From: Eledone cirrhosa
Taxonomy: Eukaryota
Assembly: GCA_964016885.1 (NCBI GenBank)
Contig: OZ024745.1
Coordinates: 65,906,001 to 65,970,000, forward strand
Reading direction: 5' to 3'
Length of the DNA: 64,000 bases
Part shown: positions 15,954-64,000 of the stretch, piece by piece
How the letters are laid out: the number at the start of each line of letters is the position of its first letter
How positions within the stretch are numbered: the first letter of the stretch is position 1
Translations under genes and position numbers: made by a program
The notes under the pieces: model-generated
The model's database searches: none
Seen by the model: the letters and a program-made list of their open reading frames with translations, nothing else
Told to the model about the DNA's origin: nothing

Positions 15954-16141
<188 letters not shown>

Positions 16142-16481
16142 GTAATAAAATGAAAACGAAATTTCATTTCTTAGTACGGCACTTACATAAATGTAAGTAT
16201 GTATGTATACGTACATACATATATGTATACAGACGTAAAATAACATGCATATATATATATATACATATATACATACAGGTACACAGACATATATGTACGC
16301 ATAAGTTTAGCGGACGCTTATTATAGCGCCCGCTTTGTTCATTTGTAAACAAACTGAACAGCCTGAATTTATGCCGCACGGTGTTAAGGCAACCACGTCA
16401 AGAAGTGAGAAATGAAATTTCGTTTTCATTTTATTACAACTCATCGTTTTCGGTGCGCCTGACCGATTTAACTCACTCGAT

Positions 16482-16489
16482 ATGCAAAT
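16482..16489 (+). promoter_or_regulatory. octamer motif ATGCAAAT in the retrozyme unit (also 16942-16949, 63798-63805, and minus strand 63484-63491)
   Basis: exact octamer conserved in both diverged subfamilies. Confidence 0.45.
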
Positions 16490-16562
16490 TAGGCTGCTCA
16501 GCCGTTAATTTTCATAAGGAAAGTATATACTTTCGAACGTTCAACTATCTGGCAGATGGGTA

Positions 16563-16607
16563 AACGGTGCTGATGATAGCTAACAAGCTTGAAACTAGTA
16601 CATCGTT
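16563..16607 (+). ncRNA. minimal type I hammerhead ribozyme, predicted cleavage after 16600
   Basis: AACGGUG-CUGAUGA-UAGCU aaca AGCUU-GAAA-CUAG-UA-CAUCGUU; canonical core, palindromic stem III. Confidence 0.9.
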
Positions 16608-17022
16608 CCTGTGTCAGTGTTGAACAAAAAGGTGACGTGGTTGCCTTAACACCGTGCGGCATAAATTCAGGCTGTTCAGTTTGTTTACAAATGAACAAAG
16701 CGGGCGCTATAATAAGCGTCCGCTAAACTTATGCGTACATATATGTCTGTGTACCTGTATGTATATATGTATATATATATATATGCATGTTATTTTACGT
16801 CTGTATACATATATGTATGTACGTATACATACATACTTACATTTATGTAAGTGCCGTACTAAGAGTGAGAAATGAAATTTCGTTTTCATTTTATTACAAC
16901 TCATCGTTTTCGGTGCGCCTGACCGATTTAACTCACTCGATATGCAAATTAGGCTGCTCAGCCGTTAATTTTCATAAGGAAAGTATATACTTTCGAACGT
17001 TCAACTATCTGGCAGATGGGTA

Positions 17023-17067
17023 AACGGTGCTGATGATAGCTAACAAGCTTGAAACTAGTACATCGTT
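17023..17067 (+). ncRNA. minimal type I hammerhead ribozyme, second tandem copy
   Basis: identical to 16563-16607, 460 bp downstream. Confidence 0.9.
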
Positions 17068-17295
17068 CCTGTGTCAGTGTTGAACAAAAAGGTGACGTGG
17101 TTGCCTTAACACCGTGCGGCATAAATTCAGGCTGTTCAGTTTGTTTACAAATGAACAAAGCGGGCGCTATAATAAGCGTCCGCTAAACTTATGCGTACAT
17201 ATATGTCTGTGTACCTGTATGTATATATGTATATATATATATATGCATGTTATTTTACGTCTGTATACATATATGTATGTACGTATACATACATA

Positions 17296-17376
<81 letters not shown>

Positions 17377-27257: not shown

Positions 27258-29949
27258 TCTTTATAGTCATGCTAAATAGGTATAATCTATATATACATAT
27301 CACTGAACTATTTTATTCAGCTTCTCATTAAAACCATTATAAAAGCGTTCTCTACAACGATTTTGATATAAACACACCATGAATATACCTACCAAGAACA
27401 TTAGATATCACACCTTAGCATTTCTCAAAAGAAATGCAAACATGAAAGCCATAAAGTTGATTGTAACATTAGCGGACATATATGATCATCAGACTTAAGG
27501 AATTGTATATGCCTTCAACAGTCAACAGACGGTGAAATATGATATATGCCTATAAGATAATAGTAATCAAAGTAAACTTCAACAACCACCCTATCTTGGA
27601 ATTCCTTCCGTCATCAACAAGAAAGCAAACATTTTAATGATTTAAGCACTGATGTAGCAAGATTACAAGACAGCAAACCGTCTTAAAGAGAATCTATAGC
27701 ATTCATTTATCGATTGTGATAAGAATGTTGCTGAACAAAAGTCAAGAAACCAATTGAAGAATAAAATTGATGCATACTGGAAGAGCATTAAATTTGTAAC
27801 ACTTGTCTTGTATACAGAAAACTTTGCTTTACGAACAGAGGAAGATTTACTGTTTTGGATATCACCACTAAATACTGTAAAACTATAAATAGATAAAATA
27901 AAAGTTTAATCCTGCTTAATGAATTAATGAATATTGATTTCATTTTGAGCAAACGCTCGAATTTCGCTCCAGACAAGGCACAATCGATTGAAAAAATACT
28001 CGTCTTATGTAACTGTGTACACTTTCTGCCAATACTATATGCAACACACACGCACACTGCCATTTCTACTACGTTTAATTCACACCACCCCTTCTTTCCT
28101 CTATTTTGTCTTTGTTCTTTTCCTATTCCACCTCCTCTCTCTCTGTTTTCTCACTTCCACTCTTTTCTTTTTCTCATTATCGTCCTCTCGACTTCTGGCT
28201 CCCTTTACGCTTTAGACCGTTCTTCTGTCTTTTATCCCTACGCATTTGTAGATAGCAGGCGTCTCTTCTTCAGCTCTGCAGCCTGCTCACATTATTCTGA
28301 AGAAAATCAAAGGTTTTAATTTCTCAATTTTTCTAGCGTCAACATGTACTTTTTACGTGCTAAGCTCGTTGTCAATATATTTATAGTCGATTTTTCCTTT
28401 TTGCAATTATGTTTGATTTTGTCGAAAGACACCTGTACATTTTCTTTCATTCTTTGTTTTGTTATCGTTTCACATGCCTCTTACCAACAGAGCGGTTCCC
28501 CAATCTATTGTGTAAACTCACTGTTCATGTTCAAAGTTGCATTCTGGCAAAGTGGTTGAAGAGGTAAAGATACAGCTCTCTGTTTGCATTTCTGCTGATA
28601 CAATAAATATATATATGGTGTCTATCTTATGAAATAGAAGAAGGCAAAACACGATACAAAATGCACATATTCATCTAACTTAATGAATATGCCTTTCTTA
28701 CATTAGTCTAAGTTTGCAGTTTGTTTTCCTCTCATTGAATCTTAGTTGGTATGATTGGTTTCAGTTCATGGTGGATATATTTTATTTTATTTTATAAGAA
28801 GAATGGCATCATCATTTCTGGGACAAAAGTTTAACATAAAATATAGAAATTTGGAATTTAATACGAATTTAAACAAGACCCTTTCTTTTAACGCCGAACC
28901 ACTTCTTCCAACTTTCTCACCTTCAAACTAAATGAGTATTGATTTCTAGAATTAGGCTAAAGCCACTGATTTCAGTGAATGACGCAGCGTAAAAGTGAAT
29001 TAAATTCCATCAATAGTTAACTAGAACTTATTTATACACCCAGAAATACTTTAAAGCAAACAAATGATCTCAACGTGATTAGAGCTCAGAACGTAAAGTA
29101 TTATAACTAAATAACACAAGGTATTAAATGCTACACTCTACAGAATGTGCTAGTCACCACCCTTTGAAGCTTAATGAATATTAAAATATTAAAGGCATCT
29201 AACCGTATGCCTTGACGAACAAATTACATAAGGAATTAGAGTTGTGTGTAAGTATCATATTATTAGCTAAATCAATGAACGTAATAACAGGATTAATAAT
29301 CTGTAAATTTCTAAATGAGTTTCGCGATGAAAGGAACTAAAGAACACAAAACCAAAAACATTGAATCTTGAATGAGAATTATTAATTATCGATCTAATTC
29401 GCTTTCAAGGAAGCGAAATTCTGTGGGAATTATTCAAACATTGTTTGTTTTTTTTGTATTTTGCTCCTTCACAAGTTTTCATAAATGTTGTCTCATGTTT
29501 CCATCTAAAACAAACATGTAAGCTAAAATACTAAACGATTAATGTAATCAAAGAAGTTTAAGAATGTTTTTTTTGAACTAACAATAATGAATCAATTCTA
29601 GCGAGTGCAAAACAGGTTACACGTAAAAATAGCAAGAACTAATCGCAGTAATATACCAGGAGTCTGTAAAAACACTACCAACATCAATCACCAACAATAA
29701 GAAGAGTATTAGAATTAGACAACAACATTGCTAGAAAGATAAAGGATGAAAAATACAGCAATATTTGTAGTATAATCAATAATTAGTAACAATAATATCA
29801 ATGGAAGAAGTAATAAAAAATTTAATAAGATCAATAATATCCATAGGGTTAATAACGGAGGTTTCAAGCATGCCGATCTAATTTTCTATTGCAACTAGCA
29901 GTAGAGGCCTCATCATCACAACAATAAAAACCTACTGTAAACTATAAAA

Positions 29950-31277
29950 GCAACTACCAAGTAATATTAAGACAATAACATGAACTACCAAGTAATATTA
30001 TGACAATAACAGCAACTACCAAGTAATATTAAGACAATAACAGCACACTACCAAGTAATATTAAGACAATAACAGCAACTACCAAGTAATATTAAAACAA
30101 TAACAGCAACTACCAAGTAATATTAAGACAATAACAGCAACTACCAAGTAATATTAAGACAATAACAGCAACTACCAAGTAATATTAAGACAATAACAGC
30201 AACTACCAAGTAATATTAAGACAATAACGGCAACTACCAAGTAATATTAAGACAATAACGGCAACTACCAAGTAATATTAAGACAATAACAGTAACTACC
30301 AAGTAATATTAAGACAATAACAGCAACTACCAAGTAATATTAAGACAATAACAGCAACTACCAAGTAATATTAAGACAATAACAGCAACTATCAAGTAAT
30401 ATTAAGACAATAACAGCAACTACCAAGTAATATTAAGACAATAACAGCAACTACCAAGTAATATTAAGACAATAACAGCAACTACCAAGTAATATTAAGA
30501 CAATAACGGCAACTACCAAGTAATATTAAGACAATAACAGCAACTACCAAGTAATATTAAGACAATAACAGCAACTACCAAGTAATATTAAGACAATAAC
30601 AGCAACTATCAAGTAATATTAAGACAATAACAGCAACTACCAAGTAATATTAAGACAATAACGGCAACTACCAAGTAATATTAAGACAATAACAGTAACT
30701 ACCAAGTAATATTAAGACAATAACAGCAACTACCAAGTAATATTAAGACAATAACAGCAACTACCAAGTAATATTAAGACAATAACAGCAACTACCAAGT
30801 AATATTAAGACAATAACAGCAACTATCAAGTAATATTAAGACAATAACAGCAACTACCAAGTAATATTAAGACAATAACAGCAACTACCAAGTAATATTA
30901 AGACAATAACAGCAACTACCAAGTAATATTAAGACAATAACGGCAACTACCAAGTAATATTAAGACAATAACAGCAACTACCAAGTAATATTAAGACAAT
31001 AACAGCAACTACCAAGTAATATTAAGACAATAACAGCAACTATCAAGTAATATTAAGACAATAACAGCAACTACCAAGTAATATTAAGACAATAACAGCA
31101 ACTACCAAGTAATATTGAGACAATAACAACAACTACCAAGTAATATTAAAACAATAACAGCAACTACCAAGTAATATTAAGACAATAACAGCAACTACCA
31201 AGTAATATTAAAACAATAACAGCAACTACCAAGTAATATTAAGACAATAACAGCAACTACCAAGTAATATTAAAACA
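29950..31277 (+). repeat. 31-bp minisatellite, about 43 copies (CAACTACCAAGTAATATTAAGACAATAACAG)
   Basis: head-to-tail units, no spacers. Confidence 0.97.
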
Positions 31278-31409
31278 AAACGACAGCTTTAATATCATAG
31301 ATATTTCACATACATACATGACTATACAAGCTCCTTAAATTGACTTCAGGCCGTATTTTATCGATTGTCACCATAATGGAATTTCAACACAATAAAGACG
31401 AAACTAAAT

Positions 31410-48836: not shown

Positions 48837-48897
<61 letters not shown>

Positions 48898-49027
48898 GTG
48901 AGTTTTTTTTTACAAAATGAAAAATAACCGAGGTGTCCTACACGAGTGAAAGTATAAAGAAAAAAAGATGAAATCGAAAATGCAACTGGAGTCTTATTTA
49001 AAAAAAATATATATATTTATTTGGTTC

Positions 49028-49063
49028 CTTTACCGGTTTCGCAGTTCTTCTGCTTTTCAAAAG
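49028..49063 (-). ncRNA. minimal hammerhead with U3-A8 core
   Basis: minus strand: CUU-UUGAAAA-GCAG aagaa CUGC-GAAA-CCGG-UA-AAG. Confidence 0.7.
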
Positions 49064-49169
49064 TAGAGTTGAGATGGAGGGTCTGTAGTTTTTCTCACAT
49101 CTGGTTGGTTTCTGAATGTTACTTGTTTTATATGGAAAAAGTGGCTCGAAATGCCAGGTTTTTCGAGAA

Positions 49170-49402
49170 GTAATTTGATTGGTTGGTCAATAATTATAAT
49201 AAATTTCGCGCCAGTTCGCGTTACAAAGTTCTTCAAACAAGGGGGAGGGGGGTCACAGGTTGTTTTTTCATATATGAATGATTGAATTTCTTTTTACTTA
49301 AAAAAAGGGCTCACGAAGGCTTTTTTTTAATAAACGTAATTTGATTGGTTATAAATGAAATTTTGGCTGTCACGTGAACAAGTTTTCATTAAATTTCGCG
49401 CC
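49170..49402 (-). promoter_or_regulatory. duplicated CCAAT-box plus E2F-like module in the Neptune 3' region
   Basis: TAATTTGATTGGTT (ATTGG at 49178 and 49344) and AAATTTCGCGCC (TTTCGCGCC at 49204 and 49394); CACGTG at 49371. Confidence 0.4.
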
Positions 49403-51614
49403 CTTATTTGGAAATCTATTCTGTAGCCTTTTTAGAGAATTTTATGACAAGCAAAACATAATGGTCAAGAGAAATTGGATGGGAGAATTGTTCTGGTTCA
49501 GTGAATATGGTTAGTTCACTGGGGTGTCAGAATTCAGATTTTCTATTGAAGTAAAGAAAGTAAAGATATGTATGTTTATTTGTGTGCTTGTGTGTGTGTG
49601 TGTGTGTATTGGAAGATGATTCTATTAGTAGAAATGGGGGAGGGAGTTGTGTGCGTGTGAATATGTGTGTGTGGGGGGGAGTATGTTAAGATGGAGAGAA
49701 TATATATATATATATATATATTTTTTTTTTTGTGTGTGTATATATGTGTGTAGGAAAGTGATTCTATTAGTAGAAATGGGGGAGGAAGTTGTGTGTGTGG
49801 AGGTGGGGGTTGTTATGTGTGTGTATGGGTGTTATGTGTGTGGGAGTATGGTTAGCATGTTAAGATGAAGAGAATATATATATATTGTGTGTGTGTGTGT
49901 GTGTAGGAAAATCATTCTTTTAGTAGGAATATTTTTGAATGAACATATTTTCCTTACTTATTCGTATTTGTTCTGTTGTATTGTCAGTGCAAACGTATAT
50001 TAAGGTTTATTTAGTTCGGGTTTTTATTTTCTAAATAGAAGGTGTTATGTGTGTGTGTATGTGTCTGTTTGTATGGTTAGCATGTTATGGTGTTGACATA
50101 ATGTATATTAAACCATATTTAATGCTGGTCTATATTTTTGAATAAACATATTTTCCTTATTTATTCGTATTTGTTCTGTTGTATTGTTAGCGCAAAGGTA
50201 AAATGGGAAGACTTGGAATTTGGGTGTCTTATTACTTGCGCATATGTCTAGATATGCGCTTAGTGGTGTCTGTCTCGTGGTTGGATCTCGTAATTGTTGG
50301 CGATGATCTGTCATTCTGTTTCTGAGTGTGATTTTAGTTTGTCCTATATAATCTTCATTGCATCCTTTACATTTAATGGCATAAATCAAATTTTTTGATG
50401 AGCAAGTGAAGTGAATTTTTACAGTAAAATTTTGTCCTGATTTAAATGTATACGTGTTGCCTTCAATGAGGTGAGTGCAGGTTCCACAATTAGAGCGACC
50501 ACATTTTTTGACACTTGGTTGTGGGTTTGTGGTAGGTAATTTAGCATTGGTGAGTAATGTTTTTAGTGATTTCGGTTGTCTTTTGCTTTTGATTATTTTG
50601 TGTGTTTCAAGGGCTTTTTTCATTCTTGGGTTTGTTTTAGTAGTGGGATGTTCTTGTGAATAGTGTGGTAAGCTTCCGCATTTCTTGGGTTGTGTGTTGA
50701 AATATATGATAGAATATTGGATGTAGCTTGAATTTGTTTCTGTTTTCGTAATTCATCAATGGCTATTGCTTTAGCCCTTTCTATTCCATTATTTATTATT
50801 AATGGTGGGTACTGTCTTTCGAGCAGAATTTCCATTAATTCTTGAAGTCTTTTATTTCGCGTTTCATAATTGGAGACAATTGTGCAAATTCTTCTTGCTA
50901 GGTTAAAAGGAATGTTCGTCTTCGTGTGCTTTGGATGGTTGGAGGTGAATAGCAGGTATTGTTTGGAATCTGTTGGTTTGTAGTGTATGTCAGTTTCAAT
51001 ATTTGTGTCTTTTTTTAAGATTAAGATGTCCAGAAATGGGAGTTGATCTTGGCTGTATTCCATTGTGAATTGGATGTGGTTATTGACGCCGTTTATTAAG
51101 TTTTTGAAATCCTTCAGTTGGTCGAGTGTGTGGGACCAAAGAATGAGACAATCATCCAAGTAGCGTTTCCAATTCTCTGATAAATATTTGTGGAAGTTCA
51201 ATCCGTATTTTGATTTGTACTGTTCATATATCTGGACTTCTAAGTATGCCATGAGTAAGATGGCATAAGTTGGAGCGGCTTTTGTACCCATCGCAGTCCC
51301 CGATATTTGCTTGTAAGTACTGCCATCGAAATCAAAAAAGTTGTTCTGCAAGATGAATTTTATTACCTCGGTGATGAAGCTTTTTACTATTCTGTCAGGT
51401 ATCTCATTGGGATATTTCTCTAGCCAGAATCCTATTGCTTCTACTCCGTATTGGTGTGGGATCGTTGTGTAGAGATTCACTACATCGAAAGACATAATAA
51501 TAGTGCCGTTGTTGACATGTTTGGGGATGTGGTTTAAGATAAACATGTCAACGACACTATTATTGTGTCATTCGATGTAGTGAATCTATACACAACGATC
51601 CCACACCAATACGG

Positions 51615-62509: not shown

Positions 62510-63053
62510 TTATATATATATATATATATAAATCTACATACATATATATATGGTGGCTGCCAACTCGTTTTCGAGTACGGCCACTACTTTATATCCATGT
62601 AGGAGAAACCCTACCGATGCTCTGAACGAGTCTGACTTTTTAGTCCAGCAAGCGACTTGAAAACTCTGGTACAAACACTACACTTGTGACAATCATTGAC
62701 ACATAGTGCTGGGCCCATGGTACCATGTGACGACAAGTGCAGAGAGATCTCCAGATATAAAGCAATGCCTGTGCCGTGAAGCTTTTATAGTGAGCAAAGG
62801 CGCTGCACAAAGCCAGCCCCACTCTCTTAACCAAGATGATATTTACCAAAAAGAAGAATAATTCAACATCATTGGATACCATCAGGGTTGTAGGTGTTAT
62901 ATCAGAGTTTTCCTTCTCCTAGAATTCTGCCTTGACAAAGGCTAAGGGGTCATCTCTCCCGGTGATCTTTGATGGCCATTGACTCTTAAGAGCTTCTTTG
63001 TCTTTTGACAGGTTTTGTTTTTAGTCCTGCAGGATGTATATATATATATAAAT

Positions 63054-63090
<37 letters not shown>

Positions 63091-63374
63091 AATATATATA
63101 TATAAACGGAAAAAATGAAACGATATTTCATTTCCCACTCTTAGTACGGCTGTTATTTAAATATAAGTATGTACACGTACATACATATATGTATACCGAC
63201 GTACAGTAGTATGTATATATATATATATATACATGCATGCACACATATATATATGCACGTATGGATTCACCGAACATTTATTATAATGCTCGGTGTGTTT
63301 GTAAACAAACATCCCGTATTAAGCCGTAGTGTCTAGCAACCACCGTTGCTCGTTTGTTCAACACTGACAAAGGA

Positions 63375-63417
63375 ACGCTGTACTAGTTCCAAGCTTGTTA
63401 GCTATCGTCAGCAACGT
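63375..63417 (-). ncRNA. hammerhead copy with GAAA->GGAA core mutation
   Basis: minus strand: ACGUUG-CUGACGA-UAGCU aaca AGCUU-GGAA-CUAG-UA-CAGCGU. Confidence 0.75.
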
Positions 63418-63871
63418 ATACCTTCCTGCCAGATTGTTGAACGTATATACTTACCTTATGCATATTAACGGCTGAGTAGCCCAATTTGCATATCGAGTGG
63501 GTTAATCGGCCGGGTGCACCGAAAACGATAAACGGAAAAAAAGAAACGATGTTTGTTTACAAACACACCGAGCATTATAATAAATGTTCGGTGAATCCAT
63601 ACGTGCATATATATATGTGTGCATGTATGTATATATATATATATATATACATATTACTGTACGTCGGTATACATATATGTATGTACGTGTACATACTTAT
63701 ATTTAAGTAACAGCCGTACTAAGAGTGGGAAATGAAATATCGTTTCATTTTTTCCGTTTATCGTTTTCGGTGCACCCGGCCGATTAACCCACTCGATATG
63801 CAAATTGGGCTACTCAGCCGTTAATATGCATAAGGTAAGTATATACGTTCAACAATCTGGCAGGAAGGTAT

Positions 63872-63914
63872 ACGTTGCTGACGATAGCTAACAAGCTTGA
63901 AACTAGTACAGCGT
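63872..63914 (+). ncRNA. minimal type I hammerhead ribozyme, predicted cleavage after 63908
   Basis: ACGUUG-CUGACGA-UAGCU aaca AGCUU-GAAA-CUAG-UA-CAGCGU. Confidence 0.9.
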
Positions 63915-64000
63915 TCCTTTGTCAGTGTTGAACAAACGAGCAACGGCGGTTGCTAGACACTACGGCTTAATACGGGATGTTTGTTTACAAACACACCGAG

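Follow-up and report, generated by a model that had tools for sequence, protein, structure and literature searches.

A high-copy, protein-free repeat in Eledone cirrhosa with a predicted hammerhead ribozyme and a likely snRNA-type promoter, probably inserted by Neptune-type Penelope-like elements

Animal non-LTR retrozymes have been described in coral, mussel and axolotl (Cervera and de la Pena 2020, PMC7229834), and the retrozyme class is also treated in Cervera 2014 (PMC4209133). According to the available portion of Li et al. 2026 (10.64898/2026.07.22.740005), an active copy needs at least two same-strand ribozymes per locus, and the survey lists no mollusc as far as that portion extends. 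A dependence of retrozymes on Penelope-like elements (PLEs) was put forward, and the routes of their transcription and integration have been proposed rather than demonstrated, as stated in the accessible sections of both sources (PMC7229834; 10.64898/2026.07.22.740005). PLEs themselves, in the sections available of Craig et al. (10.1101/2021.04.23.441226), are characterized by tandem or inverted arms, a one-sided tail and a bias toward microsatellites, while the accessible text of Frangione et al. 2024 (PMC11167929) reports that a PLE protein primes in vitro at two adjacent internal sites bounding the tail and extends both target strands. Moreover, newt satellite 2 is reported to contain an internal snRNA promoter (Coats, Zhang and Epstein 1994, as cited in the consulted part of PMC2220036).

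The repeat considered here lies in a window, namely the whole analyzed stretch of 64,000 nucleotides from Eledone cirrhosa (GCA_964016885.1, contig OZ024745.1, positions 65,906,001 to 65,970,000). By sequence criteria it is an animal non-LTR retrozyme, in which a type I hammerhead motif was found in each unit together with short, non-coding, low-GC, dispersed tandem units and a highly self-paired monomer. These features agree with animal retrozymes as portrayed in the passages available, as do the tens of thousands of copies, the PLEs in the same genome and the U-U at the base of stem II, which is common to the window retrozyme and axolotl HHR_Amex2 (PMC7229834; 10.64898/2026.07.22.740005). 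Unlike the animal retrozymes in those passages, the present family carries the two-site signature of PLEs at its ends and a promoter-like block traceable to host snRNA genes, its unit lacks homology to the PLE terminal repeats tested (eight PLE 3' regions), and its cleavage and circles are predictions. With Neptune-type PLEs, as described by Craig et al. and Frangione et al., it shares tandem and inverted 5'-truncated arms, a tail at one end, microsatellite targets and a hammerhead in the repeat, but it has no ORF, its tail is 60 nt instead of 30-40, and its unit is unalignable to the resident PLE repeats tested. The likeness to newt satellite 2, within what the citing text conveys, is that of a hammerhead tandem repeat with an internal snRNA-type (Pol II) promoter, predicted in the present case; the difference is an invertebrate genome and a U6-type octamer word combined with U1/U2/U4-type TCAG and TATA spacing. 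The literature search returned no such cephalopod retrozyme family and no snRNA-type promoter in invertebrate retrozymes, although paper supplements may list such motifs.

The reading favored here, with a probability of roughly three in four, takes the insertion for a copy of a protein-free repeat present in high numbers, in which the 428-base unit carries a predicted hammerhead and probably an snRNA-type promoter of its own, with Neptune-type PLE enzymes as the likely agents of its insertion into (TA)n. The unit anatomy, the copy number, the two fixed 3' ends and their one-of-each pairing, the covarying stems and the promoter-word match behind it are observed.

Unit anatomy, copy number and lineages

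A subfamily-B insertion occupies 63105-64000 and is constructed of a minus arm with a period of 426 (1.06 units) and a plus arm with a period of 428 (1.36 units), with (TA)n on both sides; the (TA)n target of the left flank, without strand, was located at 63037..63104 by TRF and sequence. The inverted-plus-direct architecture beside (TA)n, which had been described in an earlier sequence-only reading, is thus recovered as two divergent arms. The left arm (63105..63547, minus strand) has its 3' end at the site termed E2, includes the 60-nt tail and adjoins (TA)n. It harbors the octamer ATGCAAAT at 63484..63491 (minus strand) and, at 63376..63416 (minus strand), a type I hammerhead motif whose GAAA has become GGAA (A13G) at 63389; the mutation claimed for the minus copy is seen in the sequence and its inactivity stays a prediction. 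A change of A13 would abolish hammerhead activity. The two arms meet head to head at 63548..63550 (no strand) with a 3-nt microhomology, GAT.

On the plus strand, a complete 428-bp subfamily-B unit with a GC content of 0.38 spans 63552..63979, and the longest Met-ORF in a dimer of it encodes 53 aa. The first fixed 3' end site, E1, falls after CATACTTA at position 63699 and E2 at 63759, which delimit the 60-nt tail (63700..63759, plus strand). Downstream, also on the plus strand, there follow the octamer word (63797..63808), matching the element that promoters of host U6, U6atac and RNase MRP genes have at -76 to -78; the TCAG (63814..63817), which stands 26 nt ahead of the TATA as in host U1/U2/U4 promoters (-56 to -58); a TATA-like box (63840..63846) with a predicted start near 63870; and an intact type I hammerhead motif (63873..63913), with CGUUG/CAGCG as stem I, a stem II that has U-U at its base, a palindromic stem III of 2 bp and a predicted cut after GUA at 63908. 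A partial second unit starts at 63980..64000 (plus strand). Inspection of the sequence past 64000, where a check for more tandem units had been suggested, revealed none: the plus arm runs 127 bp beyond the window end, to window-equivalent 64127, ends at E1 and stops in the adjoining (TA)n. There is accordingly one ribozyme in each arm, the minus-arm one being the GGAA mutant, and the window locus is without the two same-strand ribozymes that other copies of the family have. Because each arm has a single ribozyme, monomer release would be impossible for this copy, and the insertion is predicted to be a dead end.

A subfamily-A insertion at 16140..17300 served for comparison, whose minus arm (0.58 unit) ends at E2 and whose plus arm (1.96 units) holds two ribozymes and has its 3' end at E1. 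The claimed homology between the 426-428-bp unit and the 460-bp unit (reference unit at 16404) amounts to 363 identical of 462 aligned columns (79%). The differences that had been listed are likewise present, with stem I as CGTTG/CAGCG here versus CGGTG/CATCG and N7 as C versus T, and stems II and III and ATGCAAAT are the same in both units as stated.

In the 3.0-Gb genome, the core pattern gave 27,520 matches versus none for its reversed control, and a tail 14-mer gave 25,409 versus one for control. The 150 distinct segments, which come from 129 loci, sort into the subfamilies A1, A2, B and C, and an intact 11-nt hammerhead core is kept in 119 of 140 copies chosen independently of the ribozyme. 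A search for the octamer plus the core with a different stem II yielded 1,954 matches, the majority closely related to A-C, versus four for control, and brought to light four distant lineages, D-G, that are 52-67% alike over the span from promoter to ribozyme; the diversification that had been supposed finds stronger support here than the sequence-only reading could give it. These older lineages (L277, L282, L286, L285 and kin) bear other stems and the cut triplets GUU, GUC and AUC. Arrays of the family reach more than eight units, and the long local unit arrays at L312 (G000:C1:70.05-70.08 Mb) and L015/L030, with higher-order repeat spacing, look like conversion to satellite DNA.

Insertion ends and Penelope-type mobilization

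With insertions touching a locus edge excluded from the end counts, 128 were complete within the fetched loci, comprising 54 with two divergent arms, 71 with one arm and three convergent ones. Outer 3' ends lie at E1 or E2, which are 60 nt apart, in 160 of 179 cases, 130 of these 160 being beside TA. Among two-armed insertions with both ends at E sites, 44 of 47 pair one E1 with one E2 (p=1e-10), in a tail-anchored sample biased against E1/E1 and not against E2/E2, the latter being seen twice; within the consecutive chromosome-1 sample the figure is 26 of 27. The 5' ends of the arms are ragged, at dispersed (TA)n sites, and arms of 2-6 units are common. No enrichment of 5' ends was found at the ribozyme cut site (4 of 168 versus 4.2 expected), so that templates starting at the cut site were rejected; the 5'-end pattern fits circular or uncut multimeric templates and shows neither. 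Mobilization by PLEs had been invoked in the sequence-only reading, and the fixed ends together with their pairing take it beyond the evidence available there, making Penelope-type mobilization of the family a well-supported deduction from sequence.

Elements with an RT, a linker and a GIY-YIG domain are abundant in the genome. Within the window, a broken, 5'-truncated Neptune-type PLE (48890..51567, minus strand) retains RT, a CX4CXXC linker, GIY-YIG and a 3' repeat; it is 84-91% like L249 and belongs to a candidate driver family, in which L249 shows Pfam RVT_1 (below cut-off) and GIY-YIG. A CX2-5CXXC linker is present in 17 of 19 PLE ORFs, a linker also common to Nematis. The resident Neptune-type family has two ends of its own about 62 nt apart (6 and 9 of 15). 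The window PLE copy also has its own inverted 5' piece, and its tail end stops in (TA)n; its family (L249) has a hammerhead variant (U3-A8) that lies 178 nt from the end. In another PLE family (L252, L253, L258, L262, L264), a minimal hammerhead-like motif with U-U at the stem II base, as in the retrozyme, lies about 380 nt after the stop, as spotted by eye and not recovered by a stricter scan.

At L037 and L161, two of 60 one-armed copies, a Neptune 3' arm abuts a retrozyme arm head to head within 8 nt; L037 pairs a PLE E1 with a retrozyme E2, while L161 is not clearly E1/E2, and for both chimeras nesting of one insertion beside the other in a common (TA)n is a possible origin. The apparent chimera at L111 was rejected as a neighboring PLE insertion with (TA)n in between.

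Ribozyme fold, conservation and covariation

The circular monomer folds with an MFE of -143.7 (z=-7.6 versus 40 shuffles), while the 63-nt ribozyme segment, taken by itself, shows no folding advantage over shuffles (z=-0.4). Rfam gave no hammerhead hit at the gathering threshold and none among 69 rows at E<=10; the miRNA-like rows were rejected as (TA)n artefacts.

The sequence-only reading had taken the flipped pair of stem I as covariation support for selection on the ribozyme. The position is U-G in 98 of 105 B copies and G-U in 39 of 39 A copies, which amounts to a single inherited event, and it takes G-U, A-U and U-U in subfamily C, so that the flip does not serve that purpose and convincing covariation needs D-G. 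It is a wobble in six of seven lineages and U-G in both B and F. Loop 2 varies, being AAUA in most subfamily-B copies. The excess of ribozyme conservation over the rest of the unit, whose absence had been named as a refutation, turned out marginal: among four subfamily consensuses, 4 of 41 ribozyme columns vary versus 61 of 263 elsewhere (p=0.034), with the other two measures non-significant. The core positions vary in 0 of 11 (p=0.06), and a lineage-versus-private variation test gave p=0.11; 140 of 150 segments were used, 10 HHR-anchored segments being left out. In the contigs of run X19, common variants fall at 4 of 41 ribozyme positions versus 13 of 287 others, all four ribozyme variants being at tolerant positions and the divergent parts of the unit failing to align. 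Among close subfamilies, the ribozyme is thus only weakly more conserved than the rest of the unit, which comes near to the outcome named as refuting.

The distant lineages settle the question better, and it is from them that selection on the ribozyme gains support at the sequence level. Across 21 D-G copies, pairing within a copy holds in 88 of 105 cells of stem I (84%) and in 59 of 63 of stem II (94%), and falls to 46% and 59%, respectively, when strands are swapped between lineages; D_L291, with a mutated core, was left out of this count and L304, missed by the motif expression, was dropped. Stem II position 4 appears as C-G, G-C and A-U across lineages. These figures come from a search that required the core and a cut-site register set by the motif, which favors stem I pairing, and the copies come from four lineages that are related to each other, so they do not count as 22 independent cases. 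Five compensatory double changes between A and B lie in hairpins outside the ribozyme, where they are more numerous, and therefore the whole RNA fold appears to be under constraint. The second subfamily as originally posed is confirmatory.

Two further observations concern decay of the motif. U7C gives a CpG over the catalytic G8, at window 63882-63883 and in subfamily B, and the core is most often altered by G8A (9 of 140 copies), which together would imply faster active-site decay in subfamily-B copies. The idea that A-to-I editing turned GAAA into GGAA was rejected, since subfamily B has no sense-strand bias (A>G 39 versus T>C 44) and the bias in A1 is non-significant (13 versus 7, p=0.18).

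Promoter-like block, proposed cycle and rival explanations

The octamer had been cited as unchanged in the context of ribozyme selection; it is unchanged, but it reads better as a promoter element. Its word stands at -76 to -78 in five of five distinct host Pol III type-3 promoters (three U6, U6atac and RNase MRP), which have TATA at -30; 12 further U6 matches and seven of eight U6atac loci without promoter were set aside as pseudogenes. The word YCAG occurs at -56 to -58 in nine of nine U1/U2/U4 promoters versus none of five Pol III promoters, and a TATA-like box lies near -30 in eight of those nine. In the retrozyme, the octamer-to-TATA spacing is 42-45 nt versus 46-48 in host Pol III genes, and the TCAG-to-TATA spacing of 26 nt is that of host U1/U2/U4 genes; a pure U6-type promoter was rejected, its spacing being off by 4-6 nt. 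None of the 14 host promoters examined has octamer and TCAG together. Neither downstream word was required by the D-G search, and in D-G the TATA is at the expected place in 17 of 22 copies (shuffle mean 1.9, maximum 8) and CAG/CAC in 16 of 22 (shuffle mean 1.5, maximum 6). Most likely the block is a promoter of snRNA type for Pol II, adjoined by the octamer; T runs would then be no barrier to transcription. Lineage E has three tandem octamer-like repeats upstream. Neither transcript nor circle of the unit was seen: none of the sequencing runs recorded as RNA was listed with the unit, four of 18 small-share runs presumed to be RNA gave 0 contigs, and four of six runs of unrecorded kind that contain the unit gave contigs only, which are uninformative on circles.

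A fuller account, rated somewhat less likely than not, is put forward tentatively. The repeat would be a self-promoting ribozyme parasite of Penelope elements, in which a hybrid promoter (host U6-type octamer with U1/U2/U4-type proximal element and TATA spacing) would be kept in at least seven lineages, and a Neptune protein acting in trans would prime both target strands at two sites on a (probably circular) RNA and roll past unit length. In the cycle envisaged under the favored reading, host SNAPc and Pol II would initiate some 38 nt ahead of the cut site in B (46 nt in A), with transcription continuing across tandem units; ribozymes acting in pairs would excise a monomer, possibly as dimers, which the palindromic stem III suggests; and the monomer may circularize. 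The PLE protein would then nick both (TA)n strands, with cDNA primed at E1 on one and at E2 on the other, and the two cDNAs, often longer than one unit, would join head to head. If true, the parasite account would fill the two gaps in the animal retrozyme cycle, namely transcription and integration, and would offer thousands of natural footprints of two-site priming by PLEs. The family makes both steps testable: for transcription there are a prediction of the start site and three words of the promoter open to mutation, for integration a pair of priming sites and L249, the nearly complete ORF of a candidate driver. The main value resides in the end-pairing rule and the promoter geometry.

Several other explanations were weighed against the favored reading. 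The unit might be a pLTR, the terminal repeat of a hypothetical autonomous PLE, left behind as an orphan, with promoter-like words belonging to that PLE and arrays as insertion by-products. The accessible part of 10.64898/2026.07.22.740005 proposes such a model for vertebrate retrozymes, and resident PLEs carry hammerhead-like motifs, including the U3-A8 variant of L249; this origin is nonetheless unlikely, for the unit has no sequence homology to the 3' regions of eight PLE copies or, except for one separate retrozyme insertion, to 30 GIY-YIG loci (150 of 10,596 GIY-YIG candidates being scored), and in none of 60 one-armed copies does the sequence run on upstream into a PLE ORF of the same sense, as judged with eight PLE references.

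A variant that keeps the element and the PLE route replaces the polymerase: Pol III would transcribe from a U6-type promoter and end at the T6 before E2, giving linear read-through templates. The octamer being the U6/U6atac/MRP word followed by a TATA, and the T6 at unit positions 268-273, 6-8 nt before E2, speak for it, but the octamer-TATA spacing is 4-6 nt shorter than in all five Pol III promoters, the TCAG/TATA spacing equals that of Pol II genes, subfamily A has T4 runs only, and arms of 2-6 units are common, which leaves Pol III rather improbable. Spread as a satellite at the DNA level, through recombination and hairpin template switching, would make passengers of the ribozyme and promoter words and products of quasi-palindrome repair of the compensatory changes. 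Some arrays are indeed long and local (L015, L029, L030, more than eight units), hairpin DNA is capable of self-correction, and the excess of ribozyme conservation is weak among A-C. The fixed, complementary 3' ends and the raggedness of the 5' ends across dispersed (TA)n sites, as well as core, stems and promoter spacing kept across lineages just 52-67% alike, render such a spread very improbable.

The host snRNA promoters used above (L121-L123, L241, L319, L136-L141, L320, L322, L340, L341) are themselves unusual, many sharing a TTAYYTCCCTTG-like word near -260. The U6 pseudogenes at L134, L192 and L201 have on their flanks (TA)n and a palindromic repeat element that is common to them. In addition, an unrelated 31-bp tandem array of 43 copies lies at window 29944-31278.
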